A stretch of 64,000 bases of DNA from Candidatus Falkowbacteria bacterium (GTDB taxonomy: Bacteria > Patescibacteriota > Patescibacteriia > CAIXNZ01): assembly GCA_963774955.1 (NCBI GenBank), contig CAVZGV010000006.1:8354-72353 (forward strand). The letters run 5' to 3'. Under the pieces are notes generated by a model that worked only from the letters and a program-made list of their open reading frames with translations, made no database searches and was not told the origin of the DNA. Below are positions 20,402 through 57,902 of the stretch, one piece after another; positions within the stretch are counted from its first letter, which is position 1, and each line of letters begins with the position of its first letter. The position numbers and the translations under genes were made by a program.

Positions 20402-20432
20402 AAAAAAATCCCCACCGCGTCGCGGTGAGGAT
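20402..20432 (-). terminator. Intrinsic terminator (copy B; ~85% identical to 19902..19935 element, followed by TTGACA -35)
   Basis: The minus strand reads ATCCTCACCGCGACGCGGTGGGGATTTTTTTATCTTGACAA. Confidence 0.6.
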
Positions 20433-20437
20433 TAACC

Positions 20438-20650
20438 TTAACGGAAAAAATTTCTGATTTCCCAGGCTATAAACTCGGCTATGACTTTAAAAAATAATTC
20501 AACGTCATCCCGATACCAGAATAAAAAAAGGCTACTCAGGATAAAGATGAATTGGAACCACTCAGTGCTCATGCCAAAGACTTCAATGAAAAAAATACCT
20601 AATAGCCAGGAAAAAACTGCAGCTCCGATATAATACCGATAGCCCCACAT
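20438..20650 (-). CDS. Small (70 aa) two-helix membrane protein
   Basis: Hydrophobic segments are present, with AGGAGG-like sequence upstream. Confidence 0.4.
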   Translation of the reverse strand: MWGYRYYIGAAVFSWLLGIFFIEVFGMSTEWFQFIFILSSLFLFWYRDDVELFFKVIAEFIAWEIRNFFR

Positions 20651-20739
20651 TATTTTCCACCTCCTTTGAAAGAATCAAATCCCTCAATACTCTAATTAAA
20701 GATTAATTTTTTAATTATGTCAATACTAAGCTTAAATCA

Positions 20740-38392: not shown

Positions 38393-39106
38393 CTAATTCT
38401 CATCATTATCTACTTTTTCCCATTTACCGTTTTTATATTCGGCTATCCAAATATCTTTTCCAGGTTTATATTTACTGATTATGGTATGCAACGGCCCCGA
38501 AACCTTACCTGAACCTCCCAGCCTATAGTCGTAATGATAATCAAGACCAACAACCCCCAATTCTAGACTGATCAAATCTCCTCGTTCATTAATAACTTTT
38601 TGTATTACAAAAAAGTCTTCAGGTTCTACTTCTGGGCAAAATTGATAAAACTTATCCATTATTATTTGTTCACTCTGAATAGGCCCGTCAGATTCTCGAG
38701 CCTGAAAATCTTCATTAGCAATGACCTGCGATTTTTTATTTTCCGGCAGGGCAATGATTATTTTCTGTTCTTCTAACATTTTCAAAATATTATTTCTAAC
38801 CAAACTATTATCAACATAATCTTTGTCTGTCTCTTCTGCCAGCTCTTTGATTTTTTCTGACTGTTTATCTTTCAATCTTTTATCCTTTTTCCAAACTGAC
38901 ACTAAATCTTTTAACTCCTGATAAATTTTAACAGCTTTAAGCGTATCACCCACCTTTTCAGCTTTGACCGCCTCATCAATCGAGTCATTGAGTATTTTAT
39001 GCTGTTCCGGCGTCAAATCCATTTCCTTAACCCGACCCAAAACCTGCCTGGCCATGGCTAAGACCGGTGGTTCTTGTTTTTCTGGTTGTTCTAAAAATTT
39101 AGTCAT
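38393..39106 (-). CDS. Paralog family member P1 (divergent N-module + short C-terminal beta-module)
   Basis: N-module …VLAMARQVLGRVKEMDLTPEQHKILNDSIDEA… The C-terminus is …GDLISLELGVVGLDYHYDY…. Confidence 0.6.
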   Translation of the reverse strand: MTKFLEQPEKQEPPVLAMARQVLGRVKEMDLTPEQHKILNDSIDEAVKAEKVGDTLKAVKIYQELKDLVSVWKKDKRLKDKQSEKIKELAEETDKDYVDNSLVRNNILKMLEEQKIIIALPENKKSQVIANEDFQARESDGPIQSEQIIMDKFYQFCPEVEPEDFFVIQKVINERGDLISLELGVVGLDYHYDYRLGGSGKVSGPLHTIISKYKPGKDIWIAEYKNGKWEKVDNDEN

Positions 39107-39117
39107 AACAATAATTC

Positions 39118-39882
39118 TTATACTATTTGTATAGATTTACCGGTCTTTGTCAGCCAACACCTCTGAGCATCATTCCAACCAACTATTATTTTGGAAAAAC
39201 CAATTGTAGCCGGCCTAACTTCAATATTTAAATCTTGCAGGTCAATAAAAGTCTCATCCGAGAAATGATTGCCTTTGTGATTTTCACCGGCTGCATGATA
39301 ACCATAACTGATTTCTGGATCACCGACTTTGCCAATCTCTAAGTTAATAATTCTCCCCTTTTTATCTTTCGTGCCGTCATAAACAAAAAGATCTTCGGCA
39401 TTAACTTCTTCGTCTGCCGCGAGAATTACCCTAAGAATTTGTTCGGCAGTAAATTGACGTTCTAATGACAGATTATAAACTCCTTCATAAGGGATAATTA
39501 TTTCATCTGCTGTCTTTTCCAGATCAATTATTTGCTGCCTCATGGCTAAAACTAAATCCTGCCGCTTTTCTTCATTCAAGGAATCATCAACAATTGCTTC
39601 TGCTATCGCCTTATTGACCTTTTCAATTTGCCTTTCTTTTAATCCCTCATAATTCGGCCTTGCCGTTATGACCTCTAAATATTTTTTTAATTGATTGTAA
39701 ATATTAATGGCTTTAGACAAGTTCTTTGATTGTTCATAATCTCGAGCTTCCTCAATCATGGCCATAACTTTTTTATTCTGTTCCGGCGTCAGATCCATTT
39801 CCCTGACCAGACCTAAAGCAGTCCTGGCCATGGCCAGGGATTGAACTTCAGGACTATTTGATTGGGGTTTTTCTTTGGGCAT
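39118..39882 (-). CDS. Paralog P2 (N-module + short beta-module)
   Basis: MPKEKPQSNSPEVQSLAMARTALGLVREMDLTPEQNKKVMAMIEEA… and a C-terminal …GRIINLEIGKVGDPEISYGYH…. Confidence 0.65.
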   Translation of the reverse strand: MPKEKPQSNSPEVQSLAMARTALGLVREMDLTPEQNKKVMAMIEEARDYEQSKNLSKAINIYNQLKKYLEVITARPNYEGLKERQIEKVNKAIAEAIVDDSLNEEKRQDLVLAMRQQIIDLEKTADEIIIPYEGVYNLSLERQFTAEQILRVILAADEEVNAEDLFVYDGTKDKKGRIINLEIGKVGDPEISYGYHAAGENHKGNHFSDETFIDLQDLNIEVRPATIGFSKIIVGWNDAQRCWLTKTGKSIQIV

Positions 39883-39910
39883 AAATTAAGATAAAACTTA
39901 TATCCATTAT

Positions 39911-40690
39911 TTACTGTAACGGAAACTCCCAACTATTTGAGTTTTCGTCATATTTAGCTATAACTTGGCCGGATTTTTGTCCACGATTATTGGAATACAC
40001 AATTCTTATAATGTTTGTATCCCCGCGGTCAATTGCCACATTTGTCTTCAAACCAGCCAAACTGAAAAAATATTCAACATCAGGAATACCGGCTAATCCC
40101 AATTTGAGCGTCAACAACTTCCCGTCTTTATCTTCTGTTCTTTCTTGTAAGAATAAAGTTTCTGCTGTACTTTCTTTTAAAGATGTAGTCTCTTCTATTG
40201 AATCCTCATTTTTTGAAATAACAGCGGCTATTTCTTTCTCAGAAAAAAATATTGCAGTATCCAGGTGGATATCTTCTTCAGCTATAACTTTTGTCTTCCC
40301 CTGACTCGGTGTCATTATAATATTTTTCTGTTCTTCCAGCGCCTCCCACAGTACAAGTTTATTAATAGACCATCGGGCTCTGGGCATAGACTCTATTTCA
40401 TTCATTTCAGCATCAATTATTTCCAGCTGTTTTTTTATTTTTTCGGGATTCGCCTCAATTCTATCAGTAGGTACCTCGTTTATCTTCTGCAGATATTTTT
40501 TCAGCTCCAAATAAAAGTTTAAAGCTTTACTTTGATTGCCCCCATTTTCTGCAGCCGTAGCTTCCTCAATCATAGCCATGACTTTTTCTTTTTGTTCCGG
40601 CGTCAGCTCCATTTCTTTCACCCGACCCAAAGCCTGCCTAGCCATTTCCAGCTCTTGTTTTTTATCAATTTTTGGCTGTTCTCGTTTCAT
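39911..40690 (-). CDS. Paralog P3 (N-module + short beta-module)
   Basis: …ELEMARQALGRVKEMELTPEQKEKVMAMIEEA… and a C-terminal …GKLLTLKLGLAGIPDVEYFFSL…. Confidence 0.65.
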   Translation of the reverse strand: MKREQPKIDKKQELEMARQALGRVKEMELTPEQKEKVMAMIEEATAAENGGNQSKALNFYLELKKYLQKINEVPTDRIEANPEKIKKQLEIIDAEMNEIESMPRARWSINKLVLWEALEEQKNIIMTPSQGKTKVIAEEDIHLDTAIFFSEKEIAAVISKNEDSIEETTSLKESTAETLFLQERTEDKDGKLLTLKLGLAGIPDVEYFFSLAGLKTNVAIDRGDTNIIRIVYSNNRGQKSGQVIAKYDENSNSWEFPLQ

Positions 40691-40710
40691 AATTTATAAC
40701 TTTATACTTA

Positions 40711-42174
40711 TTATATTACCTCCTCATCTTCTTCCTCATCAGTAGCTTCTGTATCAAATACCTTACATCCGATAGGCACCTGCTGATGAATTTTTTCAAG
40801 TTCACTGTCTGATAACTTATTATTATAGCAGGTCACTCTTTCCAAATTGATTAAATTGCTTAAATCCGGCAGAAATTCCAATTCATTGTTTGGACAATTT
40901 AATTCTTTAAGCTTAGTCAACTCTGATAAATCCGGCAATTTTTTAAGCTTATTTTTTCCGCAATGTAATTGCACCAAATTTTTCAAAGCTGAAAGTTTTG
41001 GCAAACTTTCCAGGTGATTACCAATGCAGTTCAAATTCTTAAGATTCTTAAAACCGCTTAAATCCGGCAGACTTGCTAATTCATTGTCTGCGCAAACTAA
41101 AAGCTCTAACTCCGCTAAATGGCTGATATCCGGCATTACAGTCAAATTATTATGAGTGCACCATAAAATTCTAAGCTTAGTTAAAGCGCTAATATCCGGT
41201 ATTAGAGGACAATAATCACAAGTCAAATCTTCAAGATTTTTCAGCTGGCCAAGATCAGGAGCAACCTTAAAAGGATTTTTTGAAATTTCTATTGCTTTTA
41301 ACTGGGTTAAGGCGCTTAAATCGGGCAATTCAGCGAGATTATTACTCCCAATGTCTAAGCTTTCCAGGCCGGTAAAGACTCTTAGATCAGGCAAGCTTGC
41401 CAGTAAGTTACCGTGCAGGTCTAAGCTTTTAAGCTTAGTCAAGGCGCTTAAATCCGGAATGGTAATGAGGCCTTTTTTCACAACAGTATTAATATCTTCA
41501 TCTTTAGTTAACGCAAACAAATTAATCTTCAACCAGGTGATATTACCTTCGGAATCAGTATTAATTCCTGCTTCAATTATTTCCCAAATTTCATCACTGT
41601 CAGTACGTAATTCAGTTTTCAATTTAATATCAACAAGTTTTTCTTGTATCTCATATAAAACACAAAATTGCCGATATAAAACCCTGTATTCGCCTAATTC
41701 CATCTGCAATTTTGGTAACTTTGTCAGAAAATCACCCGATTCAATATTTTTATCGTATAATTTTATTAGTATAATATTGCCATCTTCATCGACTTCCAGC
41801 CCATTATCCAATATTATATTTACTGCCTCCTTTTCTGTCATACCTATCGAAGTTTTCACCATATTTGCTGCCAACTCCTGTAAAACCTGGACTTGCGGAT
41901 ATAAAATCTGATAGCCGCCGTAATCTACTAAAGTTGCCTCCATTTTACTCGCCATTTCATTTTCTTTTAGGGATCTGAGAAGCTCATTATATACTCTTAA
42001 AGCGCCGGCTAAATTTTTATTTTTCTCTAGTGCCTTGGCCTCGTCTATCATGGCCATTACTTTTTCCTTTTCGTCAGGAGTCAGCTCCATTTCCTTAACC
42101 CGACCCAAAGTACGCCTGGCCATGGCCAGGGACTGAGCTTCTTGATTGTTTAATTGCGGTTTTTCCTTAGGCAT
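40711..42174 (-). CDS. Paralog P4: N-module + leucine-rich repeats (~22-aa LPDLSxLxxLxxLxCxxNxLxx) + acidic tail
   Basis: MPKEKPQLNNQEAQSLAMARRTLGRVKEMELTPDEKEKVMAMIDEA… followed by at least 12 LRRs and ending …TDEEEDEEVI. Confidence 0.7.
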   Translation of the reverse strand: MPKEKPQLNNQEAQSLAMARRTLGRVKEMELTPDEKEKVMAMIDEAKALEKNKNLAGALRVYNELLRSLKENEMASKMEATLVDYGGYQILYPQVQVLQELAANMVKTSIGMTEKEAVNIILDNGLEVDEDGNIILIKLYDKNIESGDFLTKLPKLQMELGEYRVLYRQFCVLYEIQEKLVDIKLKTELRTDSDEIWEIIEAGINTDSEGNITWLKINLFALTKDEDINTVVKKGLITIPDLSALTKLKSLDLHGNLLASLPDLRVFTGLESLDIGSNNLAELPDLSALTQLKAIEISKNPFKVAPDLGQLKNLEDLTCDYCPLIPDISALTKLRILWCTHNNLTVMPDISHLAELELLVCADNELASLPDLSGFKNLKNLNCIGNHLESLPKLSALKNLVQLHCGKNKLKKLPDLSELTKLKELNCPNNELEFLPDLSNLINLERVTCYNNKLSDSELEKIHQQVPIGCKVFDTEATDEEEDEEVI

Positions 42175-42200
42175 ATATAATTTTAGACAATTTTAACCCA

Positions 42201-43325
42201 CTAAACTTTACCGTCAGCTTTTAATTTATTCCAGACTCCAATCATGCTTGGCGGACCGACCAGACAATGGATCAGTTCAGCCACCTCGCCTACAGACAAT
42301 TGGTCGGGATCTTTTTTTGCCTGCAAACGCCATTGCCAAGCTTTGTCGCTATTGACGTAAGCCAGACTATGCAATATCTCAACAGGATATCGTGTAATCT
42401 CCTTATTACGCTTATTTATCGGATATTCTTGCAAATATGTTGACCTGAATTTCCAGGCATCTTCGCTATCCAAGCCAACCAAACTGGTAAGTATTTCCTG
42501 CGGATTTTTCCTTTCTGCCAACATCTGACGCCGTATTTGCCAGGCTCTCTCGCTGTCCAAACCGGCTAAACTAGCTATTACCGCTTTGGGTAAAGACCCT
42601 ACATATTCGTTTCTTATTTTCCAGGCTTGCGGCGTGTCCAAACCGGCCAATCCCTCAATAATTTTACTTTTAATATTCTCACTGCAGGCGTCACTTTCTA
42701 AATAATCATTCCTATGGTTCCAAGCCTGGGGTGAATCGATTCCCGCCAAACTCATGGCAAATTTTATATCATATGAATCGGGAGAAGAAAATAATTCTTT
42801 TCGTTTTAACCAAGCTTTTTCACTATCCAAACCAGCCAGACTATTTGCATAATCAAGAGAGCCTTCCAATTTGTTTCGCAATTCCCAGGATTCCTCATCA
42901 TCCAGACCAACCAGACTTTTTATAACAGATCTTCTATCAATCTCCTCGTCACTTTTGGCATATTTCCTTCTGATTTCCCAAGCTTGTTCACTCTCAAATC
43001 CCATAATTTTTGATAATACACTATATTGGGACAATTTATATTTAAGCTGTAAATCAGCCAAAAAAGAAATCACCCGCTGTTCATATTCATAGGGCATTTC
43101 CGGGCTTTTTATTTTTTCCAAATATATTTTTAATTTATTGTAGGCATTAAGCGCTTTAGACAGCTGTTTAACCTTTTCATATCCCTTAGCTTCATCAATC
43201 ATAGCCATGACTTTTCCCTTTTCCTCCGGTGTCAAATCCATTTCCTTGACCCGACCCAAAGTCTGCCTGGCCATGTCCAGGGCTTGAGATTCAGGACTAT
43301 TTGATTGAAGTTTTTCTTTGGGCAT
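42201..43325 (-). CDS. Paralog P5: N-module + ~32-aa ARM/HEAT-like repeats (SLAGLDSExAWxxRxxxL)
   Basis: MPKEKLQSNSPESQALDMARQTLGRVKEMDLTPEEKGKVMAMIDEA… followed by about 8 repeats. Confidence 0.7.
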   Translation of the reverse strand: MPKEKLQSNSPESQALDMARQTLGRVKEMDLTPEEKGKVMAMIDEAKGYEKVKQLSKALNAYNKLKIYLEKIKSPEMPYEYEQRVISFLADLQLKYKLSQYSVLSKIMGFESEQAWEIRRKYAKSDEEIDRRSVIKSLVGLDDEESWELRNKLEGSLDYANSLAGLDSEKAWLKRKELFSSPDSYDIKFAMSLAGIDSPQAWNHRNDYLESDACSENIKSKIIEGLAGLDTPQAWKIRNEYVGSLPKAVIASLAGLDSERAWQIRRQMLAERKNPQEILTSLVGLDSEDAWKFRSTYLQEYPINKRNKEITRYPVEILHSLAYVNSDKAWQWRLQAKKDPDQLSVGEVAELIHCLVGPPSMIGVWNKLKADGKV

Positions 43326-43330
43326 ATTTA

Positions 43331-44452
43331 TTAGTAACTACTTTCTTCTTCATCCTTTCTTGCTTTGCGCACACCGGCCATAAGATAATCGCCATTGACT
43401 CCCCTAGCAACAGCATCTTTATCTGCGCCTTGTTTTAAAAATTTTTTTCTCATTTGCCAGGCCCGCTCTGAATCCAGTCCGGCTAAACCTCTAGCAATAT
43501 AATCTATACTTGTAAATTCCCATAATAATTTTTGCCTCATTTGCCAGGCTTGCTCGGAATCCAATCCGGCTAAGCCTAGAGCAACATAATAACTTATATC
43601 TGGGACGTCTTGCTCTAATAATTCTTTCCTCATTTGCCAGGCTTGCTCGGAATCCAATCCGGCTAAGCCTGAAGCAATACCTTCACCTGCATCTTTCTCT
43701 AAAAATTCGTTTCTCATTTGCCAGGCTTGTTCTGAATCCAATCCGGCTAAACCCTCAGCAACAGCATCTTTATCTGCGCCTTGTTCTAATAACTCTTTTC
43801 TCATTTGCCAGGCTTGCTCTGAATCCAATCCGGCTAAGCCTCTAGCAACATATTCTTTTCTTGCGCCTTGTTTTAATAACTCTTTTCTCATTTGCCAGGC
43901 TCGCTCGGAATCCAGTCCGGCTAAACCTTGAGCAACATAACCTTTTGTTGTGCCTTGTTCTAATAATTCATTTCTCATTTGCCAGGCCTGTTCTGAATCC
44001 AGTCCGGCTAAGCCTAGAGCAACAGCATCTTTATCTGCATCTGCGCCTTGTTCTAATAACTCTTTTCTCATTTTCCAGGCTTGCTCGGAATCCAGTCCGG
44101 CTAAGCCTTGAGCAACATATTCTTTTCTTGCGCCTTGTTTTAATAACTCTTTAAAATAATCAAGGGGCTTAGCCTCTAATTTTTCTTTTTCAATTCTTAA
44201 TTTAATATCTTCTTTTTCTTTTTCAATTCTTAATTTAATATCTTCCAAATATTTTAATAATTGGTTATAAACATTCAGGGCTTTAGACAATTGCTTTGAA
44301 TTTTCGTAACTTGTGGCCTGATCAATCATGGCCATCATTTTTTCATGCTGTTCCGGCGTCAGATTCATCTCTTTCACCCGACGCAAAGACTGCCTGGCCA
44401 TGTTCAGGGATTGCGATTCAGAATCTCCGCTAGGTAAATTTTTATTCTTCAT
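43331..44452 (-). CDS. Paralog P6: N-module + about 9 near-identical 29-30-aa tandem repeats (GLAGLDSEQAWQMRKELLEQGADKDAVA)
   Basis: …SQSLNMARQSLRRVKEMNLTPEQHEKMMAMIDQA… The DNA repeat unit is about 87-90 bp and highly identical. Confidence 0.7.
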   Translation of the reverse strand: MKNKNLPSGDSESQSLNMARQSLRRVKEMNLTPEQHEKMMAMIDQATSYENSKQLSKALNVYNQLLKYLEDIKLRIEKEKEDIKLRIEKEKLEAKPLDYFKELLKQGARKEYVAQGLAGLDSEQAWKMRKELLEQGADADKDAVALGLAGLDSEQAWQMRNELLEQGTTKGYVAQGLAGLDSERAWQMRKELLKQGARKEYVARGLAGLDSEQAWQMRKELLEQGADKDAVAEGLAGLDSEQAWQMRNEFLEKDAGEGIASGLAGLDSEQAWQMRKELLEQDVPDISYYVALGLAGLDSEQAWQMRQKLLWEFTSIDYIARGLAGLDSERAWQMRKKFLKQGADKDAVARGVNGDYLMAGVRKARKDEEESSY

Positions 44453-44461
44453 ATAAAATCA

Positions 44462-45196
44462 TTATTTAATAGTCCACATATCTGAATCCTCATTGTAATC
44501 AGCAAAGCCATTCATGGTCGTATCCATTGGATTCTTAAAATCAATATGAAATTCCGTTATTTCTGTTTTAATTATTCGTTCAGGAAATTTTTTACTTGCC
44601 TGTTTCACGCTGAAAGCGTAATTAAATTCCGGGCTTCCCACCACGGAAAAATTCAGGTTCATTATTCTGCCGTTTTCATCAACCTGTATCTTTTCAAGCA
44701 TAAAATTATACAGGGGCAAATCTACAACCTCTGCTATAAATTCATGAATTTCATCAATGGAAAATTTATGTTTGGAAATTATTTCATTATTTTCATTTAT
44801 TACCTTTTCCACCGCGCGTTTTCCTTCAATAAGTTCTTTCTGTTTTTCAAGTTCGGCGCGCATTTTTTCTCTGACTTTGGGGATTACACCGGTATTTGTC
44901 TCGTTTTTTTCTATAGCTTCCTCAATTTTTTGCAGCTGCCGCCTGATTATTTCCGGCGATACCGGAGATCCCTCACTCTTAATAATTTTTAAAAACCTTA
45001 AAAGCTTGTTATAAGCATTCAGTGCCTTGGAAAGTTCTTTGTTTTTTTCATATTCTTTAGCTTCGTCAATAATCGCCATGATCTGTTCTTTCTGTTCAGG
45101 CGTCAAATCTAAGTCCTTCACCCGGCCCAAAGACTGCCTGGCCATGTTCAGGGACTGAGTATCGTTCCCTTTTAGTTGTTCACTTAATTTTGACAT
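44462..45196 (-). CDS. Paralog P7 (N-module + short beta-module)
   Basis: …TQSLNMARQSLGRVKDLDLTPEQKEQIMAIIDEA… and a C-terminal …GRIMNLNFSVVGSPEFNYAF…. Confidence 0.65.
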   Translation of the reverse strand: MSKLSEQLKGNDTQSLNMARQSLGRVKDLDLTPEQKEQIMAIIDEAKEYEKNKELSKALNAYNKLLRFLKIIKSEGSPVSPEIIRRQLQKIEEAIEKNETNTGVIPKVREKMRAELEKQKELIEGKRAVEKVINENNEIISKHKFSIDEIHEFIAEVVDLPLYNFMLEKIQVDENGRIMNLNFSVVGSPEFNYAFSVKQASKKFPERIIKTEITEFHIDFKNPMDTTMNGFADYNEDSDMWTIK

Positions 45197-45201
45197 ATAT
45201 T

Positions 45202-46365: not shown

Positions 46366-46380
46366 TAAATAAAATATAAT

Positions 46381-47136: not shown

Positions 47137-47160
47137 AAAAATAATTTCGATACAAACGTG

Positions 47161-48765: not shown

Positions 48766-48775
48766 ATTTAATTTT

Positions 48776-48865
48776 GGGCGAAAACGGCTGACGGCAAGGA
48801 CCTCTATATGTAGAGACGCGCTGCAGCACGTCTCTACCGTCCGCAAACAACAGCCGTTTTCGCCC
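48776..48865. repeat. GC-rich nested-palindrome intergenic element, copy 1 (GGGCGAAAACGGCTG…GTAGAGAC-N-GTCTCTAC…CAGCCGTTTTCGCCC)
   Basis: Outer 15-bp IR and inner 8-bp IR. GC content contrasts sharply with the AT-rich flanks. Closely related to copy 4. Confidence 0.8.
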
Positions 48866-48884
48866 TAGCAATTACTCTTCATTT

Positions 48885-50174: not shown

Positions 50175-50229
50175 AAACTGCTCGTCAGGACTTTGGGGTT
50201 GTGGTTTTTCTTTAACATATTAATTCTTC

Positions 50230-50316
50230 GGGCGAAAACGCCCTGAAATATATTTCACGTAGGGGCGGGTCGCGACCCGCCCCTACGACTGCCGTAGGCA
50301 ACAGGCGTTTTCGCCC
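50230..50316. repeat. GC-rich nested-palindrome element, copy 2 (GGGCGAAAACGCC…GTAGGGGCGGGTCGCGACCCGCCCCTAC…GGCGTTTTCGCCC)
   Basis: Same terminal 11-mers as copies 1, 3 and 4. The inner palindrome is 12 bp. Confidence 0.8.
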
Positions 50317-50341
50317 TACCACTACTTTAGACTTTATGGAC

Positions 50342-50791
50342 TTACAATCTTTCCACCGGTCCCACCAGGCTGAAGAAATTATTATAATTCAGCTTTTCCA
50401 ATTCCTTATCCGTAGAAACTATGATAATATTGCTTTCCTCCGGAATATCTAAAGTCACCCAGTCTTCCAATTTAGAAAATTGCATTCTTTTATCATGAGA
50501 AATCAGATACAATTGGTTATAAATCTTGGGATCAAGATATTCATGGAGCCTGATTATTGCCCATCTTTTATTTTTCATGGCTTCATACAGCCAGTCAATC
50601 TGAGTCTCCGCATCTTTATTCGGAGTTAATTCAAATGAGGTGACCATATTTAAATCAGGGGCCAGATTAGAAATGTCTGCTAAAGTCTCTTTTTTAACGA
50701 CTAAAAGGCCAATTTCCTTGGTCGCAGCCGGCTGTAACCTGCTGACTACTTCATAAAATTTTTTAATTTTTTCAATGTTTTTTGGAGTCAT
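50342..50791 (-). CDS. Hypothetical 149-aa protein upstream-adjacent to VWA/MoxR pair
   Basis: ORF in the same orientation. No family assigned. Confidence 0.45.
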   Translation of the reverse strand: MTPKNIEKIKKFYEVVSRLQPAATKEIGLLVVKKETLADISNLAPDLNMVTSFELTPNKDAETQIDWLYEAMKNKRWAIIRLHEYLDPKIYNQLYLISHDKRMQFSKLEDWVTLDIPEESNIIIVSTDKELEKLNYNNFFSLVGPVERL

Positions 50792-50895
50792 AATGTTTCA
50801 TGATGTTATATTAGGTTTTATAAGGTTATATAAAGTTTATAAGTTGCTTTGTTGGAATTTGTAATAATCTGTATTTGATTTGTAGATTTGTATCA

Positions 50896-52914
50896 TCATT
50901 TTTTCTGAATTAAACCTTTAACCGTATCGCCAATTTGCTGAGCATAATCATCAATATTAATCGAAGGCAGGTTTTTTACCCGCGGCAAAGAATCATCATA
51001 AAACTCTTGGACATGGTCAGTACCCGGACCGATGCCTGTACCCAGCACATACTGTTCACCTTGTCTGGAAATATCTTTAATCACTTCTTTTAACTGTTCG
51101 TTCTTATCTAAATCCGCATATCTTTGAACATCAGTATCAGGTGCCGGAGCCGGCTGTCCGTCAGAAGTCACAATTAAAAACTGACTATCACCGCCTGCAG
51201 CCGCTAAAATCTGACTGGCTTCATCCACGCAATAAGCATCGCTGTTATGACCATTTTCATTATTGGCGCCGGGCCTGCTATTTTTGCCCGCAGCCTCATC
51301 TTTCATGCCGCTCATTCTTTCTCTGACAGCGTCATCCATTTTATCATCAAAATCTTTAAACTTTATCAGCTTATCCTGAAAACCGTAAATGGCCACTTTT
51401 AAATTAGGCAAAGTATTCCCGACCCGTTCCAGAGCCTCGGACAGTAAAACCGCGCTTTTGAAAGCCTCGGCGATTTTTTCACCATCCATGGACCCTGAAA
51501 GATCGATTAACAGTAAAAAAGTAAAAGACTCTCTTTCCAAGGTTTTTCTGGTTTCAAATAATTCCCTATATTCCTTGGTCGCGGCCCATTTCATAGCGCC
51601 TTTGAGGCGCAGACGCTGGCCCGGAAATCTGGTTTTAAATTTGGGAAATCGCTCCAAAATAAAAGCATTAATCAGATCATCAGCCACATCATCAATATAT
51701 TTGGCGACTGATTCATAAGCTTTGTCATATTCACTTTTTTGGGCTTCTAGTTTTTTCTCCAGATCTCTTAAAGTTTTTCTATTTTCCCTTTCTTTGGCCT
51801 TGTCTTCCTTTTTCTTTTCTTCATCCTCTTTCTCTTCCTTGGCTGATTTTTTTTGTTTCACAAAATGACCTTTCAGTTCCTTATTTAAATCATCTTCCAA
51901 CCCGTCCAGACTATCTTCAGCTGCTTTGGCAGCTTTTTCCTCCCATTTTTTCCTGTCTTCTTCTGACAGGCCATCCAGCCATTCCTTTAATTTCTTTTTC
52001 AACTGTTCGCGTAAATCTTCCGGTATTTGATCCAGTGGTAAAGGCTCACCGTTGGCACCTTGACCTTCTTCAGGTAAGTCAAAATTACTGTTTTCAATCA
52101 TGTCCTTGATCTTCTGCCGCATTTCCTCATCTTCAAAAGACTTGTCAATCAGCTGTTCATAAACCGGCCAGATAGTATTGTAAACAAGATTGTAAACTCT
52201 TTTGGCTTGTTCAACTATATCATCCTCCTTGGGATCTTTAATATCCGGCAAAGTCTCATAAGCCAGTTCCGCATACTGATTGGTTTCATCCAGGGCTTCC
52301 TGGACATCTTCAGGTAAATTTTCAGAAAATTTTTGATAAAACCAGTAACGGATAATTTCCAAACCATATTTAATATGTTTAGGCGTATAACCCAGCTTGT
52401 CTTTGGCTTTCATATCCAGATGGTCAACCGGCAAATCCTCCAGATAAACCTGATTCAACCATTCGCGGGCACCCTTGTATTTTTGCATGGCGAAATTATT
52501 AACCCGAGGATCTTCAACCGCATTCATCAGGAAAGAAAAGCCTGTAGTTTGCCAGACATTTTTGGGAATAAAATCCACCCGCGAAATATTACGGTGAGCA
52601 CCTTCATGGGCCAGTACACCCCAGCAATATTCCTTACTTTTTTCTACGATATCAACGGGATCAACCTCAATTTTATTATAAGGTTTGAAAATATAACGCC
52701 AGCCGCGTTCTTTGCCGACTTCAACTTTAACCCCAAAATCCTCGCCAATGACTTTACCCAAGGTAATTAACTCTTCCATTCTTTGTTTGACTTCGGCTGT
52801 CATTTCCGGCTTAGCTTCTGGCGGGACCGTCTGGCTAGATTGATTGGGATTTTCACTCTCTAAATGAAAAGATTGTTCCTTCATATATTTATCTTTATTT
52901 TTTCTTGGGTTCAC
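50896..52914 (-). CDS. DUF2201-like protein: N-terminal putative metallopeptidase-like region (HEGAH = HExxH) + C-terminal VWA domain with MIDAS (DLSGSMDG)
   Basis: 672 aa. Contains …CWGVLAHEGAHRN… and …FLLLIDLSGSMDGEKI…TSDGQP. Overlaps the start of the MoxR gene by 20 nt. Confidence 0.7.
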   Translation of the reverse strand: MNPRKNKDKYMKEQSFHLESENPNQSSQTVPPEAKPEMTAEVKQRMEELITLGKVIGEDFGVKVEVGKERGWRYIFKPYNKIEVDPVDIVEKSKEYCWGVLAHEGAHRNISRVDFIPKNVWQTTGFSFLMNAVEDPRVNNFAMQKYKGAREWLNQVYLEDLPVDHLDMKAKDKLGYTPKHIKYGLEIIRYWFYQKFSENLPEDVQEALDETNQYAELAYETLPDIKDPKEDDIVEQAKRVYNLVYNTIWPVYEQLIDKSFEDEEMRQKIKDMIENSNFDLPEEGQGANGEPLPLDQIPEDLREQLKKKLKEWLDGLSEEDRKKWEEKAAKAAEDSLDGLEDDLNKELKGHFVKQKKSAKEEKEDEEKKKEDKAKERENRKTLRDLEKKLEAQKSEYDKAYESVAKYIDDVADDLINAFILERFPKFKTRFPGQRLRLKGAMKWAATKEYRELFETRKTLERESFTFLLLIDLSGSMDGEKIAEAFKSAVLLSEALERVGNTLPNLKVAIYGFQDKLIKFKDFDDKMDDAVRERMSGMKDEAAGKNSRPGANNENGHNSDAYCVDEASQILAAAGGDSQFLIVTSDGQPAPAPDTDVQRYADLDKNEQLKEVIKDISRQGEQYVLGTGIGPGTDHVQEFYDDSLPRVKNLPSINIDDYAQQIGDTVKGLIQKK

Positions 52915-54349
52915 CCTTACCCATTATTTTACTTTTGGCTTCTGGCGGCAGACCCATGCCCAGCAGATCACCTTTTATGGCGCGAAGCTGTTTTTCCATT
53001 TCCAATAATTCCTGAGCTTCAGCCTTGATCTCAGGTTCCTGAACTTTTATCAGTTCCTCGGCCACTAATTTTAAATCGTCCCGATCTTTCTTATCCTTGC
53101 ATTTATTCATAAATAAATGTTCAATGGCCTCGGTAATCACCTCTTTCATCCGGCCGACCTCATGAAATTTTCTGAGATAATCTTCAAACCTGACCGCGTC
53201 TCTTTGATCAAAAACGAATTTCTGTTCCTGTTTTTGACAAATTGATTTTTTTTCTAGCATTTCAATCCCCTTATAAACAAATTCACTAAATTTATCAGCC
53301 AGGTCAGCCAGCCATTCCTCTTGATAATATGCAGTCATCTTTTTATCTTCAAGTATCGGAGAAAGTGAAAGATAGCGCAAATTTTTCAGTTCCGGTTCTT
53401 GGGGCGTACAGCCGAAACTTAAAGCCACGCGCGATTTAAAAACATTTTTGGGCAATTTGCCAAGATTCTGATAATTCCAACGGGAAATCCATTCAGCTGA
53501 CAAGGGCACACGGCCTTTGAAATCGCCTCCGGGCGGATTAACCGTGGCAAAGAGCCGAAAATCTTTATGGCGAGGAATTACTTTTGAACCGTCTTCATGC
53601 AAAACCAGCTGGCCGCCTTTTTCCAAAACAGCATTTAAACGCACCAGAATCTGAGGTTCGCAGGTATTGACTTCATCCAATACAGACCAGGCTCCCTCCA
53701 GCATCTGTTTAGGTATATCGCCGTTTTGCCAGGCCCATTCGCTTTCCGAGACTTCAATGCCTTCCAACTCGGCAATCTGCTGCATTTCCTTCTTGGTTAA
53801 CCCGATTTTCTGTTTGGCAATGACTTTGGAGTCACTAGGATCGCTTTCTTTTAATTTACTGACATCAATATTCTCTATTTTTGTTTTAGCTTCGATCAAC
53901 TTTCTGGCTTCCTCACTGGTGCACTTTTCCGGATGTTTTAATAAAACGTTAATTTTGTCTTTCAAACCTTCTACCCTGGGAACCCATTTGCCGATCAGGT
54001 CGGTCACATCAGTCTGGCCATTTAAGGACATTCTGTAAACGGGTTTATTTAAAAGCATAGCCAGATATTCCACGGTAATGGTTTTACCAATAGCCTGTTC
54101 ACCCTCAATCATCAGCGGTGAATCCATTTCCACTGCTTTGGCAATATCCTGCAGTAATTTAAGAGAATAATCGTCCAAAGAAAAATCCTCAAAGCGTTCA
54201 GGCTTTGGCACTTTATCGGACGTTTCTCTGTTTTTGAACATCTCAATGCCCAGGATTTTGACCCGATTTTCAAACTCCTGGACCGGTTCTTTTGATTCCT
54301 CCTCAGGCGCTGCCCCCATGCCCGGGATATTCATGTCTGGTGATCTCAT
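52895..54349 (-). CDS. MoxR-like AAA+ ATPase (AAA_5/dynein-related clade) with N-terminal extension and insertion after Walker A
   Basis: Walker A is GEQAIGKT. Walker B is VLDEVN. Sensor region is ATVNPPGG. 484 aa. Confidence 0.75.
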   Translation of the reverse strand: MRSPDMNIPGMGAAPEEESKEPVQEFENRVKILGIEMFKNRETSDKVPKPERFEDFSLDDYSLKLLQDIAKAVEMDSPLMIEGEQAIGKTITVEYLAMLLNKPVYRMSLNGQTDVTDLIGKWVPRVEGLKDKINVLLKHPEKCTSEEARKLIEAKTKIENIDVSKLKESDPSDSKVIAKQKIGLTKKEMQQIAELEGIEVSESEWAWQNGDIPKQMLEGAWSVLDEVNTCEPQILVRLNAVLEKGGQLVLHEDGSKVIPRHKDFRLFATVNPPGGDFKGRVPLSAEWISRWNYQNLGKLPKNVFKSRVALSFGCTPQEPELKNLRYLSLSPILEDKKMTAYYQEEWLADLADKFSEFVYKGIEMLEKKSICQKQEQKFVFDQRDAVRFEDYLRKFHEVGRMKEVITEAIEHLFMNKCKDKKDRDDLKLVAEELIKVQEPEIKAEAQELLEMEKQLRAIKGDLLGMGLPPEAKSKIMGKGEPKKK

Positions 54350-54418
54350 AATTTTAAAGTTAATTTTAATTTTTAATATTGTGTATACCGCTACGCGGCA
54401 TTAGTATTTATCAATTTG

Positions 54419-55192
54419 TTACTCGATTGATTCAAGCGGATTAATATATCTTGTCCATCTGCCGGTACCGTCACCATGATCAGCAAATTCTGCAATAACG
54501 GAAATAGTCCTCGGCTTTTTTTCGGTAAATTTCGACCTGTGGATTACTGTATTACTTGACGAACCTACACTGCCATAACGACCTTTCAAAAAATATTCAT
54601 ACTCAACTTCGGGCAAACCAACCTGTATCAGCTGTAAATGCAGTAAATTCCCTTTGGAATCAATAATTTTCTTGGTGGCAAAAAAGTGGGTATCTGTCAG
54701 GCCTTCAATATCTCCGATAATATCCCTGATTTCTTTTTCCGTAAATACTTTTGATGATTCTATTTCCGCTTTATTAGAATCAATAACTTCGGGTTTAAAA
54801 TCTTGCCATTTAGTAATTAATGATTTTTGGTTCAACAACATTTTTGCCCGGGTTTGACGATATGCAGGCCTAAGCCCATAATTTTTTTCATTATCGGCTA
54901 TGTTCATATCTATTAAATCCAATTGATTTTTGATAATCTCAGGGGTAATTTTATAACCGCTGTTATTTTCAAATTGAATAGTTTGCAATAGATTTAATAG
55001 TTGCTGGTAAATTTTAAAGGCATTTACTCCCCTGCCGGCTTGCTCCTCCGCCTTGGCCTCATCAATCATAGTCATGACTTTTTCCTTTTCTTCCGGCGTT
55101 AAATCCATTTCCTTAACCCGACCCAAAGTCTGGCGAGCCATTTCCAGGGCCTTAGATTCTGAACTTTTAGGTTGTAGTATTTCTTTGGGCAT
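54419..55192 (-). CDS. Paralog P12 (N-module + short beta-module)
   Basis: MPKEILQPKSSESKALEMARQTLGRVKEMDLTPEEKEKVMTMIDEA… and a C-terminal …GNLLHLQLIQVGLPEVEYEYFL…. Confidence 0.65.
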   Translation of the reverse strand: MPKEILQPKSSESKALEMARQTLGRVKEMDLTPEEKEKVMTMIDEAKAEEQAGRGVNAFKIYQQLLNLLQTIQFENNSGYKITPEIIKNQLDLIDMNIADNEKNYGLRPAYRQTRAKMLLNQKSLITKWQDFKPEVIDSNKAEIESSKVFTEKEIRDIIGDIEGLTDTHFFATKKIIDSKGNLLHLQLIQVGLPEVEYEYFLKGRYGSVGSSSNTVIHRSKFTEKKPRTISVIAEFADHGDGTGRWTRYINPLESIE

Positions 55193-55213
55193 AAATTAAT
55201 TAACTTGGGAAAA

Positions 55214-55975
55214 TCAGTCTAAAATTTCCCACATATGCAATTTCATATTATATTTAGCCATTTCTCTGATCTGTCTCTTTCGTTTATCTTGAAGATTAAC
55301 TTCATATTTAATAATCACAGTATCAGTAACATCCTTCTTACCCTTAGTATCTTCAAATATTTCTGACAAATGGATCCGAAAACCGATCTCCGGTTTGCCC
55401 GCTACATGTAAATCCAAATATACCAAATGACCATCCTCATCCAAACCTTTATCATCTAAAAAAAGGGCGCCCTCGGGAAATTTTTCTTGATTTTTGATCA
55501 GATCCCAAATATCTTTTTCTTTTAACACCTCCGGAACATAATTATGTTGTTCTGCGGGAATGTATCTTGTTTTCATTTCAGTTGATTTTAAAACCTGCTT
55601 TCTCTGTGCCTGCAATGCATCAACTCTCTGTAAATTTTCCTCTTTAACCCCTGTAGAGGAAATAAGCATATTTGTTAATTTTATTGTTTGAGCGTCTATC
55701 AAACGTAATTGCCTTTTTGTAATTTCCGGGTCATCTATTATTTCACCTTTGTCTTTCGCCTTTAAATGTTCCAGATGTTTTCTTAATTCCAAATATAGAT
55801 TCAAGGCCTTACTTTTATTACCTGCCTTTTCCTCTGCTATAGCCTTATCAATCATAGCCATGACTTTTTCCTTTTCCTCAGGACTTAAATCCATTTCCTT
55901 GACCCGACCCAAAGTCTGGCGTGCCATTTCCATGGTCTTAGTTTTATTTTTCGGTTGTTCTAAACTTTTTTTCAT
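55214..55975 (-). CDS. Paralog P13 (N-module + short beta-module)
   Basis: …TMEMARQTLGRVKEMDLSPEEKEKVMAMIDKA… and a C-terminal …GHLVYLDLHVAGKPEIGFRIHL…. Confidence 0.65.
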   Translation of the reverse strand: MKKSLEQPKNKTKTMEMARQTLGRVKEMDLSPEEKEKVMAMIDKAIAEEKAGNKSKALNLYLELRKHLEHLKAKDKGEIIDDPEITKRQLRLIDAQTIKLTNMLISSTGVKEENLQRVDALQAQRKQVLKSTEMKTRYIPAEQHNYVPEVLKEKDIWDLIKNQEKFPEGALFLDDKGLDEDGHLVYLDLHVAGKPEIGFRIHLSEIFEDTKGKKDVTDTVIIKYEVNLQDKRKRQIREMAKYNMKLHMWEILD

Positions 55976-55993
55976 AGACTTTAGACTTTTTAA

Positions 55994-56773
55994 CTATATT
56001 TCCGGTTCCCAAATATGTTTGTCTTCGTTATAACTTGCACTAACACCGACGGTTCTCCCGCCCCTTAATATATCCTTAAAATTTACGGTTTTACCCAGGA
56101 TTGTCCTTGGTTCTACAGAATTTCTTTTTGTATCGATTCGATATTTTGCTGCCAGAAAATACTCAAGCTCAATTTCTGGTTTGCCAACAACCCCTAAATT
56201 AAGATAAAGCAAATCACCTTCTTCATCCACGATTTTTTTATCCAAATAAAGATCCGCATCAGACAATTTTTCCCTTTTCTTAATTTCTTCCCAGACCTGT
56301 TTTTCAGTAAGTATTTCCAGCGCAGTTATTTCCACCTCGTTATTGGGCCGTATTTCCGTTTTTAATTTTCTCGCTTGAATTATCACATTTTTCTGGAGCT
56401 TCAAAGCGGCAAACATTTTATTCAAATATTCTAAATCCTTCATGCTTATTTTAGCGCTTGATATTTTATCACTAATCTCATTAATCCTCATATCAACCAG
56501 CAATAATTGCGTTCTGATCATCTCAAGATCATCCAACATTTCACCGGATAAAGCTAATTTAATATCGTCCAAATATTTTTTCAATACCTGATAAATATTT
56601 ATGGCCTGGCTCGGGTTCACCTTTTCAGCCGCCTTAGCCTGATCAATCATAGCCAGCACTTTTTCTTTTTGTTCAGCTGTCAAATCTATTTCCTTGACCC
56701 GACCCAAAGTCTGGCGGGCCATTTCCAGGGCCTGCGATTCGGAGTTCTTCGGTTGTGGCTTTTCTTTGGGCAT
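55994..56773 (-). CDS. Paralog P14 (N-module + short beta-module)
   Basis: MPKEKPQPKNSESQALEMARQTLGRVKEIDLTAEQKEKVLAMIDQA… and a C-terminal …GDLLYLNLGVVGKPEIELEYFL…. Confidence 0.65.
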   Translation of the reverse strand: MPKEKPQPKNSESQALEMARQTLGRVKEIDLTAEQKEKVLAMIDQAKAAEKVNPSQAINIYQVLKKYLDDIKLALSGEMLDDLEMIRTQLLLVDMRINEISDKISSAKISMKDLEYLNKMFAALKLQKNVIIQARKLKTEIRPNNEVEITALEILTEKQVWEEIKKREKLSDADLYLDKKIVDEEGDLLYLNLGVVGKPEIELEYFLAAKYRIDTKRNSVEPRTILGKTVNFKDILRGGRTVGVSASYNEDKHIWEPEI

Positions 56774-56784
56774 AATATTCAGTT

Positions 56785-56923
56785 GGGCGAAAACGCCCTT
56801 TGTCTTTTGTCATTTCGAGCCCTTCGGTTTCACTCAGGGCAAGCTCCGCCGAGAAAGTATTCTTCCGCGGAGTTTACACTAAACGAAGTGAAGTGGTCGG
56901 TATGACAAAGAACGTTTTCGCCC
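56785..56923. repeat. GC-rich nested-palindrome element, copy 3 (longest, ~139 bp, several internal hairpins)
   Basis: GGGCGAAAACGCCCTTTGTCTTTTGTCAT…CTCCGCCGAGAAAGTATTCTTCCGCGGAG…ATGACAAAGAACGTTTTCGCCC. Confidence 0.8.
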
Positions 56924-56934
56924 TACAAACTTAA

Positions 56935-57684
56935 TTAAATGTCAATTATATCCCAATCCTTTTTAGACTCATCATATCTGGCAACTTGAACGCCATGCAC
57001 GGTACTCCCGGTTTCAGGATCCAATTCCAATCTGGCTAACCCTGTTTCCATTGAGGAACCAATATCCTTAAAACTGCCTGCCAAGATATAATTGTATTCC
57101 GTATCAGGTCGGCCGGCTATGCCAACGTTCAATGATAATAGCATGCCGTGTTCATCAACAGCTTTATGAATAATATATATTTTATCCCACTCCGGTCCCG
57201 GCAAACTTGCTAAAACACATATAAGCTCCAGAACATTAGCTTCTGTGGGTATGGTCTTAGCTTCAATTTTTACGTCTTTCTTCGGGACTATCTCTGTTTT
57301 ATCTTCAAGAGGCTGACGAATAATTTTTTTTTGGGACACCAAAACAGTAAATCGTGACTTTTTTGAATTTTCATCAATTTCCTCATTTGTCATTAAGTCA
57401 GCTATCGCCTGATCAACATATTCCAATTGTTTTTTTATTTTATTATGGTCAACATTTTTATCCTGTTCAATCCCCTGCAAAAATTTCTGCAATTGGATAT
57501 AAATTTTTAAGGCTCTGGCTTTATTGCCTGAATTTTCTTCAGCTTTAGCCTGGTCAATCAGGGCCATCATCTTTTCATGTTGCTCCGATGTCAAATCCAT
57601 TTCTTTCACCCGACCCAAAGTCTGCCTGGCCATTTCCAGGGTCTGTGTTTCTGAACTATTTGATTGTGGTTTTTCTTTGGGCAT
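56935..57684 (-). CDS. Paralog P15 (N-module + short beta-module)
   Basis: MPKEKPQSNSSETQTLEMARQTLGRVKEMDLTSEQHEKMMALIDQA… and a C-terminal …GMLLSLNVGIAGRPDTEYNYIL…. Confidence 0.65.
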   Translation of the reverse strand: MPKEKPQSNSSETQTLEMARQTLGRVKEMDLTSEQHEKMMALIDQAKAEENSGNKARALKIYIQLQKFLQGIEQDKNVDHNKIKKQLEYVDQAIADLMTNEEIDENSKKSRFTVLVSQKKIIRQPLEDKTEIVPKKDVKIEAKTIPTEANVLELICVLASLPGPEWDKIYIIHKAVDEHGMLLSLNVGIAGRPDTEYNYILAGSFKDIGSSMETGLARLELDPETGSTVHGVQVARYDESKKDWDIIDI

Positions 57685-57705
57685 AAATTGATTGCTAGGC
57701 GAAAA

Positions 57706-57786
57706 CGGCTGGCGTCAGAGACGTTGGTCGGTAGAGACACGGTTAACCGTGTCTCTACCGTCCGTAAACAACAGCCGTTTTCGCCC
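57706..57786. repeat. GC-rich nested-palindrome element, copy 4
   Basis: AGGCGAAAACGGCTGGCG…GTAGAGACACGGTTAACCGTGTCTCTACCGTCCGTAAACAACAGCCGTTTTCGCCC. About 80% identical to copy 1. Confidence 0.8.
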
Positions 57787-57902
57787 TGTTATAATATTAA
57801 AAAATTACCAACTTCCCCCTGAAATTAGTTATTTTAATAATGTGGATAACACTGATCAATCTATATTAATTTTATCATTTATTAGCCAAAAAAAGAAGGG
57901 GA

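Follow-up and report, generated by a model that had tools for sequence, protein, structure and literature searches.

Layout of the gene array

In a 64,000-nucleotide stretch of the genome of a Candidatus Falkowbacteria bacterium (assembly GCA_963774955.1, contig CAVZGV010000006.1, positions 8,354 to 72,353 of the forward strand; hereafter the window), fifteen open reading frames (ORFs) begin with the same module of ~75 amino acids, the N-module, and continue into C-terminal domains of five classes. All fifteen lie on the minus strand, eleven (g01 to g11) in 38393-50174 and four (g12 to g15) in 54419-57684, and a hidden Markov model (HMM) of the N-module run over the 64-kb window matched these 15 ORFs and no others. 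This agrees with an original prediction, made by a model from the letters of the DNA, of fifteen co-oriented paralogs with a shared head. Three genes of the same orientation part the two array blocks and encode a MoxR-class AAA+ ATPase, a protein with a von Willebrand factor A (VWA) domain and a conserved protein of 149 amino acids, together called the triad (Table 1). An interrupting MoxR-VWA pair had been predicted, and its members were recognised by AAA_5 and by CobT_C/VWA matches with an HExxH motif, but the 149-aa gene had been missed.

The predicted spacing of about 10-30 bp was found inside the array blocks, where spacers measure 5-28 bp, but not at four array junctions with spacers of 119-167 bp. 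The wider spacers are those between g10 and g11 (119 bp), between g14 and g15 (161 bp) and around the triad (69-167 bp). At the DNA level the N-module copies of the window are 61-74% identical (50% at third codon positions), with a longest exact match of 37 nt. By this measure the paralogs are evidently old, and a collapsed or mis-assembled repeat, which the original prediction had named as a possible refutation, can thus be dismissed, as can recent gene conversion. Translation of g10 starts at ATG 48765 and not at TTG 48846. Upstream of ATG 50174 of g11 the leader is intact in frame (YVKEKPQPQSPDEQF, window 50175-50222, minus strand); its ATG at 50218 is out of frame by 1 nt, and only the internal ATG 50174 can start translation. 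Either the leader has truly decayed or the assembly is wrong by 1 nt; the head of the g11 orthologue P0022 is intact.

No hydrophobic segment of transmembrane strength was detected in any of the 18 proteins (15 paralogs and the triad), and neither a signal peptide, as had been anticipated for the paralogs, nor a lipobox was found in array or triad proteins. Genes for secretion or membrane functions were likewise absent from triad and array.

Table 1. Genes and elements of the array and DGR repeats at related loci. Positions refer to the window unless another locus is named. DGR, diversity-generating retroelement; LRR, leucine-rich repeat; TR, template repeat; VR, variable repeat.
Feature	Position	Strand	Evidence
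g15: N-module + short-form alpha+beta C-module, 249 aa	56935..57684	-	ORF list, N-module HMM
g14: N-module + short-form C-module, 259 aa	55994..56773	-	N-module HMM
g13: N-module + short-form C-module, 253 aa	55214..55975	-	N-module HMM
g12: N-module + short-form C-module, 257 aa; directly upstream of MoxR	54419..55192	-	N-module HMM
MoxR-class AAA+ ATPase, 484 aa, short form	52895..54349	-	AAA_5
HExxH + VWA protein, 672 aa	50896..52914	-	CobT_C
Conserved 149-aa protein, third triad gene	50342..50791	-	conserved after VWA gene
g11: N-module (truncated/frameshifted start) + PD40/TolB-type beta-propeller, 429 aa	48885..50174	-	PD40
g10: N-module + 10-11 beta-rich 37-aa repeats, 534 aa	47161..48765	-	111-nt period
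g09: N-module + short-form C-module, 251 aa	46381..47136	-	
g08: N-module + LRR, 387 aa	45202..46365	-	LRR_4 2.5e-16
g07: N-module + short-form C-module, 244 aa	44462..45196	-	
g06: N-module + ~8.5 helical repeats GLAGLDSEQAWQMR, 373 aa	43331..44452	-	87-nt period
g05: N-module + diverged LAGLDSxxAW helical repeats, 374 aa	42201..43325	-	
g04: N-module + LRR, 487 aa	40711..42174	-	LRR_4 3.7e-26
g03: N-module + short-form C-module, 259 aa	39911..40690	-	
g02: N-module + short-form C-module, 254 aa	39118..39882	-	
g01: N-module + short-form C-module, 237 aa	38393..39106	-	
Palindromic element copy 1, upstream of g15	57690..57795	-	
Palindromic element copy 2, upstream of g14, ~50-nt insertion	56778..56930	-	
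Palindromic element copy 3, between 149-aa gene and g11	50222..50325	-	
Palindromic element copy 4, upstream of g10	48770..48872	-	
L022 DGR	TR 4662-4790; VRs 4179-4307 and 9543-9671		
L024 DGR repeats	5925-6036 / 5524-5635		
L025 DGR repeats	15933-16054 / 12976-13097 and 15547-15668		

The shared N-module

The first ~75 residues of all 15 paralogs readily align and give the consensus MxKxxxQxxxxExQxLxMARQxLGRVKEMDLTPEQKEKVMAMIDEAKxxExxxNxSKALNxYxxLxxxL, with nine invariant columns (M18, A19, R20, L23, A46, E50, A58, Y62, L65) and a mean column identity of 62%; over the first 95 residues, pairwise identity among the 15 ranges from 29 to 59%. The head is better conserved than what follows, as the nine short forms share on average 52% pairwise identity in the head versus 23% in the remainder. 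The first half of the N-module is family-specific, combining a short polar leader with a helix that bears the invariant M-A-R, a motif that lies 13-17 residues from the N-terminus in every complete sequence.

That the N-module is no named domain, as originally supposed, holds in so far as no Pfam, NCBIfam, PHROG or PADLOC model matched it at threshold, but its second half resembles MIT and TPR domains at a sub-threshold level. Pfam MIT (PF04212) matches at residues ~40-90 recurred in 6/15 paralogs and also in relatives, with E-values of 0.02-0.07 (best 8.9e-4) and with scores that peaked at 15.4 bits within the window and at 19.7 bits in a relative, below the gathering score of 30 bits. A profile search of the PDB placed the ERCC6L TPR and the VPS4A/SKD1 MIT domains on top (VPS4A MIT 0.088), and an exhaustive profile search with the N-module found the proteins P0044 (library-wide E 1.9e-6) and P0024 (3.7e-10), whose whole-sequence E-values add up several repeat matches and which are MIT-repeat proteins according to Pfam (3.5e-39 and 3.5e-30). 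Structure searches returned generic three-helix bundles only. Because of these recurrent matches, the PDB profile matches and the retrieval of MIT-repeat proteins, the second half (columns ~34-71) may be described, at sub-threshold level and by reciprocal profile matches only, as an MIT/TPR-like helical hairpin.

MIT domains such as those of Vps4 and spastin are likewise small helical protein-docking modules tied to AAA+ machines. The N-module differs from them in scoring below the gathering cut-off and in its extra N-terminal helix with the invariant MAR, and an ESCRT-III-like partner was not identified for it. A degenerate N-module copy in the VWA or 149-aa protein found no support, and the likeness of the MoxR tail to the N-module was no better than a reversed-sequence control. 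With no N-module copy found in any of the three triad proteins, docking of the N-module on them would thus be heterotypic.

The variable C-terminal domains

Nine of the 15 paralogs are short forms that share one C-terminal module, of ~125 amino acids and alpha+beta fold rather than the beta-module of ~100 residues first proposed. AlphaFold2 (AF2) modelled it with a predicted confidence (pLDDT) of 89.8, and the complete g15 protein with 83. The predicted two LRR proteins and the TolB-like propeller were recovered by Pfam, as g04 and g08 carry LRRs (the LRR_4 matches are listed in Table 1) and g11 a PD40/TolB-type propeller (PD40 4.9e-12).

For the remaining three, the repeats are as predicted but their proposed labels, ARM/HEAT and WG-like, are assigned by no Pfam match. 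The helical repeats of g05 and g06 measure 29-31 aa (LAGLDSxxAWxxR, period 87-93 nt); Pfam gives them no ARM/HEAT assignment, and those of g06, which follow their 87-nt period with 79% matches, had no match in the PDB. The 37-aa repeats of g10 match no Pfam family, and a homologue in another genome, P0029, has the same architecture. PHROG matches of g06 and g10 were confined to unnamed families. A perfect 33-nt tandem duplication at window 44180-44245 doubles the peptide (E)DIKLRIEKEK of g06 just after the N-module, which indicates a probable recent slippage.

The MoxR-VWA-149-aa triad

The MoxR protein matches AAA_5 (3e-14, 53.7 bits against a cut-off of 22) and has the Walker A motif GEQAIGKT and the Walker B motif VLDE. 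Its best PDB match is midasin, with an E-value of 1.6e-72 that is summed over six AAA modules (best single module 55 bits); CobS (8.5e-9), CbbQ and NorQ all rank below midasin. The MoxR and VWA genes overlap by 20 nt; the latter encodes an N-terminal HExxH(...E) metallopeptidase-like domain, a charged helical linker and a C-terminal VWA domain (residues ~467-640 of 672). In 20 VWA homologues H103, E104, H107 and E134 are invariant, and so are the residues of the metal ion-dependent adhesion site (MIDAS), D471-x-S473-x-S475...D585; the protein is therefore predicted to combine a zincin-like domain and a charged linker with a functional-looking MIDAS. A profile of the VWA protein matched CobT (6e-24), the midasin MIDAS (1.6e-10) and NorD (3e-5) in the PDB. 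A MoxR gene beside a gene for a MIDAS-bearing VWA protein is the make-up of a MoxR-class AAA+/VWA pair. PHROG matches of the two proteins were to generic CobS/CobT-like families only.

The original prediction had compared the VWA protein to DUF2201. In DUF2201-type proteins the HExxH domain precedes the VWA domain, as it does in the window's VWA protein, but Pfam shows no DUF2201_N or DUF2201 match on it, only CobT_C (1.8e-9) and VWA_2, and this assignment was rejected. An identity as aerobic CobS/CobT cobaltochelatase was likewise rejected, as TIGR01650 reached 40.2 bits where its cut-off is 558.55 and the genes lie amid the paralog array.

The 149-aa protein has no match in Pfam, NCBIfam, PHROG or the PDB. 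Its gene follows the VWA gene in three other loci, L005 (Ca. Magasanikbacteria, GCA_026396515.1), L007/L014 and L022, with 52-57% identity, and the gene order MoxR-VWA-149/150 aa is kept in all three. The 91 VWA and 85 MoxR clusters that were retrieved carry as source names only Patescibacteria, Magasanikbacteria or plain 'bacterium', and named homologues among the 85 MoxR clusters are called Patescibacteria, 'MoxR-like ATPase' or 'midasin'. To judge from these homologues, the triad is a conserved unit of Patescibacteria. Together with the NiFe hydrogenase described below, they also point to a source of the window within that group. The lengths of the MoxR homologues are bimodal, ~440-500 aa versus ~705-826 aa. 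Three homologues of ~535 aa (P0165, P0166, P0174) form a third length class, with an extension of ~110 aa at the N-terminus rather than the C-terminus. In the window, the 104-bp spacer between the VWA and 149-aa genes contains a 20-nt tandem repeat in 2.8 copies (ATAAAGTTTTATAAGGTTAT, 50790-50843).

The N-module family outside the window and its link to the triad

Among 1.84 billion cluster representatives, an exhaustive HMMER search with the N-module profile gave 58 matches at E<=1e-3, comprising 12 window genes (one of them, P0017, is g15 called from an internal start), ~39 family members elsewhere and, for the rest, MIT/TPR-type repeat proteins and a few marginal ones. The family comprises the window type and a second subfamily of the type 'SLESQLKMARPRR...AVAAEKAG'. 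Between them, these two have at least 15 classes of C-terminal domains, among which are WD40 domains, homologues of g10 and g11 and also two DGR-targeted classes. A word-indexed protein search with the N-module alignment had no match, nor did a scan of species-representative genomes with the window-type module; a scan of Joint Genome Institute (JGI) metagenomes with it gave one weak fragment (L021).

A large set was found in the metagenome-assembled genome GCA_964411255.1 (L008-L020, contigs CAYPKD010000001-6), in which at least 42 N-module ORFs occupy 13 loci, in arrays of 1-10 co-oriented genes. This assembly is titled 'uncultured Gammaproteobacteria bacterium' yet bears a Patescibacteria-type triad, and because of this triad and the at least 42 N-module genes the label is probably wrong. 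In a related genome (L001/L002), two N-module genes lie 6 kb from a gene (17752-20703) for a protein of 983 aa that bears a major-vault-protein shoulder domain (PF11978).

Three lines of evidence tie the family to the triad. The first is neighbourhood: at L007/L014, whose VWA protein is 56% identical to that of the window, seven N-module genes surround the triad, three before and four after it, and at L022 (VWA 58% identical) the MoxR and VWA genes have one N-module gene between them, while its paralog comes after the 150-aa gene.

The second is hypermutation. At L022, Avd and reverse transcriptase (RT) genes are located inside the triad, and the two N-module genes both match, at their 3' ends, a template repeat of 129 nt; the mismatches between template and variable repeats fall on template adenines in 18/18 and 12/13 cases. 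Because adenine-specific mismatches are a DGR signature, the C-terminal domains of the L022 N-module genes are probably ligand-binding domains under programmed diversification. DGRs in or beside the MoxR-VWA unit were found in the Patescibacteria loci L022, L024 and L025, with variable regions located at the 3' end of either N-module genes or MoxR itself. The metagenomes 3300014208, 3300029892 and ERZ1292625 are the sources of these DGR loci, and ERR12035938 contains the lineage of the window. The family member P0025 and its L022 paralog thus have the features of DGR targets, whereas the window genes lack them, with neither RT nor Avd in the window. At L024 the RT is split over two ORFs and integrase (rve) genes flank the locus.

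The third is domain fusion. In 13/16 MoxR homologues with extra C-terminal sequence (548-826 aa), the extension is homologous to C-terminal domains of N-module proteins. Most extensions match P0033 (nine at 1e-48 to 6e-87, two at 5e-8 and 9e-6), and others match P0048 (2e-27) or P0025/P0014 (1.5e-54 and 7e-35). This fusion evidence concerns C-terminal classes of the N-module family other than the short beta-module, LRR and solenoid of the window. At L024 and L025 the variable domain fused to MoxR is itself the DGR target. In the window, L007/L014 and L022 a short MoxR has N-module genes as neighbours, and L005, L024 and L025 have a long MoxR and lack N-module genes within 10 kb. As one lineage links the variable domain covalently to MoxR and another links it to the N-module, the N-module protein would be expected to associate with MoxR or its complex.

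Neighbourhood, hypermutation and domain fusion together argue that the N-module most likely serves to attach exchangeable recognition domains to the MoxR/VWA machine, and lend support to the earlier suggestion that the variable tails are recognition domains. A lineage-specific family that merely expanded near the triad by local tandem duplication, with no functional link to it, is disfavoured and appears very unlikely. Such an account would fit most of the copies in GCA_964411255.1, which lie away from the triad, and the single copies found among glycosyltransferase or sugar-metabolism genes, but it leaves unexplained why N-module genes surround the triad in three lineages with a VWA identity of only 56-58%, why a DGR inside the triad targets N-module genes and why the shared variable domains are fused to MoxR elsewhere.

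Proposed mechanism and biological role

From this linkage we infer a physical docking, a partner surface for it, a path of signal transduction and a biological role. The 15 genes may encode a set of exchangeable cytoplasmic subunits that confer recognition on a machine specific to Patescibacteria and made of MoxR, VWA and 149-aa proteins, with the N-module as docking handle, a reading whose chances we regard as evenly balanced. The N-module would be the constant handle by which each variable domain docks non-covalently on the machine, most likely on the MoxR hexamer, and such docking would take the place of the direct attachment seen in sister lineages, where a variable domain of this kind is covalently fused to the MoxR C-terminus. 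There, a DGR would hypermutate one or two recognition domains. The genome of the window would instead owe its variety to germline-encoded paralogs with LRRs, a PD40 propeller, 37-aa beta repeats, helical solenoids or one of nine diverged beta-modules. A ligand bound by the recognition domain would elicit an ATP-driven action of MoxR on the VWA-MIDAS/zincin protein, which would then act as a switch or as a protease. As all parts are predicted to be cytoplasmic, the likeliest ligands would be intracellular foreign proteins, and the whole might act as a conflict or immunity system as proposed for MoxR-vWA ternary systems.

Of the two roles originally considered, the one favoured here is a nucleoside triphosphate-dependent system with diversified sensors, which fits the MoxR-vWA/DGR paradigm (PMC7159879; 10.1101/2023.09.22.558884). 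The other, host-interaction or attachment factors of an episymbiont, would have the variable domains bind molecules of the host cell and make the N-module the signal for an unrecognised export or assembly route and the MoxR-VWA pair a loading or assembly chaperone. Patescibacteria are described as epibionts, and host interaction has been proposed for their DGR targets (work cited in 10.1101/2023.09.22.558884). LRR, WD40 and PD40 are typical interaction modules, the family reaches at least 42 copies in one genome (contigs of 131-233 kb), and the fixed spacing between N-terminus and MAR motif is leader-like. Against this stand the soluble nature of the proteins, with no signal peptide, transmembrane segment or lipobox, the lack of any secretion or membrane gene in triad or array, and the fusion of the variable domain to a cytoplasmic AAA+ ATPase in sister lineages, which is hard to square with export; we consider this explanation unlikely. 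The N-module as a handle, put forward in the original prediction for either the NTPase or an export route, is supported for MoxR/VWA by the neighbourhood, DGR and fusion evidence and unsupported for export. A polymorphic toxin or secreted-effector family (LXG, PE/PPE) was also rejected, given that no secretion genes were found and the C-termini are repeat or binding domains; the array genes abut without the small intervening ORFs that adjacent immunity genes would form.

Several observations weigh against the reading as recognition subunits of the triad machine. A PADLOC-DB 2.0 scan of eight representatives gave only a spurious Cmr1 match (0.0042). The triad stands in housekeeping synteny, with MreB adjoining it in L005 and ribosome recycling factor (RRF), prolyl-tRNA synthetase (ProRS) and DNA polymerase III delta' nearby in L005/L007, rather than in a typical defence island, and both findings weaken the step to foreign ligands and immunity. 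The same step is weakened by GCA_964411255.1, where most family members lie away from the triad. There, only 1/13 loci holds it and at least 35/42 copies sit in the 12 others, so that the N-module is not always a neighbour of MoxR/VWA, a point on which the original prediction had proposed to survey related genomes. P0014 and P0029 are found in unrelated neighbourhoods, and single copies among glycosyltransferase or sugar-metabolism genes. In addition, the window's own classes (short beta-module, LRR and solenoid) were not found fused to MoxR, and the complementarity of MoxR length and adjacent N-module genes was seen across the six lineages (six loci) examined.

A more far-reaching proposal, which we put forward only tentatively and regard as rather doubtful, is that of a cytoplasmic Patescibacteria recognition system without described equivalent, in which a single-module midasin-like AAA+ with a MIDAS/zincin partner would be served by an MIT-like docked receptor repertoire, either germline-encoded (15 to more than 40 paralogs) or somatic by DGR. 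If true, germline and DGR repertoires would solve one problem in two alternative ways on a common chassis, and the N-module would be a new adaptor class that turns a covalently fused sensor into an exchangeable one. In the literature, no paper was found on this N-module, on the HExxH-VWA/149-aa triad or on their link.

In published surveys, DGR targets in candidate phyla radiation (CPR) bacteria mostly lack recognisable domains, and their role is open (PMC8144416). The present locus ties such targets to a defined conserved machine consisting of MoxR, the VWA-MIDAS/HExxH protein and the 149-aa protein. Some lineages apparently assign the recognition role to a set of paralogs joined through a dedicated docking module and others to hypermutation, which makes these two routes to diversity directly comparable. 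The docking reading predicts that the N-module binds MoxR or its partners, and the system is expected to be small, soluble and reconstitutable. A correct link would also explain the heavy investment of genes by very small genomes, 15 here and at least 42 in a relative.

Comparison with known systems

MoxR-vWA systems with DGR-diversified or module-swapped recognition or effector domains have been described (PMC7159879; 10.1101/2023.09.22.558884), namely the 'ternary' systems of VMAP/iSTAND types by Kaur, Burroughs, Iyer and Aravind in 2020 (PMC7159879) and the DGR versions by Dore et al. in 2023/2024 (10.1101/2023.09.22.558884). Like the window, they have a MoxR AAA+ gene followed by a vWA gene, with a further component encoded directly upstream of MoxR. 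They also share hypervariable modules, which arise by domain swapping or DGRs; such DGRs are present at L022, L024 and L025, and the window has its paralog panel. The idea of a small helical adaptor that couples separate proteins to the core is common to both as well, being realised there by effector-associated domains (EADs).

Differences are nevertheless evident. In the ternary systems effectors lie C-terminal to the vWA domain, whereas in the window triad the vWA domain is itself C-terminal and preceded by an HExxH domain, and the variable domains of the triad system sit on MoxR or N-module proteins and not on the vWA protein. The window has a further conserved gene, for the 149-aa protein. 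No VMAP match was obtained in Pfam scans of the 15 paralogs and the 149-aa protein, with the presence of a VMAP-C model in the library unconfirmed, and no iSTAND component was detected. Homotypic pairing is proposed for EADs, but the N-module was not detected in the core proteins, so that no such pairing is evident. The host belongs to Patescibacteria, which were left out of the multicellularity statistics of the 2020 study (PMC7159879); the locus would add a CPR branch to MoxR-vWA systems, hitherto described mainly in multicellular bacteria.

Midasin/Rea1 resembles the triad as the best PDB match of the AAA protein, by a clear VWA/MIDAS match and by a charged linker before the MIDAS. It differs in combining six AAA modules and the MIDAS in one chain of ~4,700-4,900 residues and, unlike the triad, in having no peptidase domain. 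The midasin clients Rsa4 and Ytm1 consist of a small N-terminal docking domain and a beta-propeller. They dock via a ubiquitin-like (UBL) domain, not via a helical MIT-like module, and midasin functions in ribosome biogenesis.

A housekeeping machine for remodelling or quality control similar to midasin, with the N-module proteins as adaptors that bring endogenous clients to a MoxR/VWA/zincin chaperone-protease, was considered as well and appears quite unlikely. The AAA and VWA proteins are closest to midasin and CobS/CobT, the clients of midasin likewise combine an N-terminal MIDAS-binding domain with a WD40 propeller, and the triad is vertically conserved in the housekeeping synteny mentioned above. 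Moreover, the characterised MoxR-VWA pairs NorQD, RavA-ViaA and CbbQO are maturation chaperones (PMC9976466, PMC3893208, PMC4660213). The DGR hypermutation of recognition domains, however, argues for open-ended, changing ligands, and the fast divergence of the C-module relative to the head speaks against fixed clients too.

With CobS-CobT, NorQ-NorD and CbbQ-CbbO the window shares the two-gene unit of AAA_5 and VWA with intact MIDAS. These pairs lack both an HExxH domain and a set of recognition subunits, and the triad, unlike them, stands in no cobalamin, nitric oxide reductase (NOR) or Rubisco context. By analogy only, F-box/SCF substrate receptors are comparable, as they form large paralogous families with a small N-terminal helical docking module and LRR, WD40 or other domains; no sequence relationship was found, and they serve a ubiquitin ligase rather than an AAA+/VWA/zincin machine.

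Palindromic elements and other features of the window

A palindromic element of ~100 nt occurs in four copies, all within the array, and ends 10-25 nt before start codons. Its outer stem of 15 bp (GGGCGAAAACGGCTG...CAGCCGTTTTCGCCC) encloses a hairpin of 13 bp, with compensatory changes among the copies in 12/31 pairs, and GGGCGAAAACG has 8 matches versus 1.0 expected. The elements divide the array into g15, g14 to the 149-aa gene, g11, and g10-g01. No Rfam family matched them at gathering score. A reading as integron attC or recombination sites was considered; the elements are found at 4/17 gene junctions and not after each cassette. Possible roles are those of a terminator, a processing site or a regulator in the 5' untranslated region.

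Elsewhere in the window, two tandem SAM-I riboswitch aptamers (55.4 and 54.2 bits; 19528-19644 and 19722-19834, minus strand) are located upstream of the gene at 18411-19502, and an L10 leader is found at 16073-16216. The window also encodes a group-3b-like NiFe hydrogenase, a type of enzyme that is familiar from CPR genomes.

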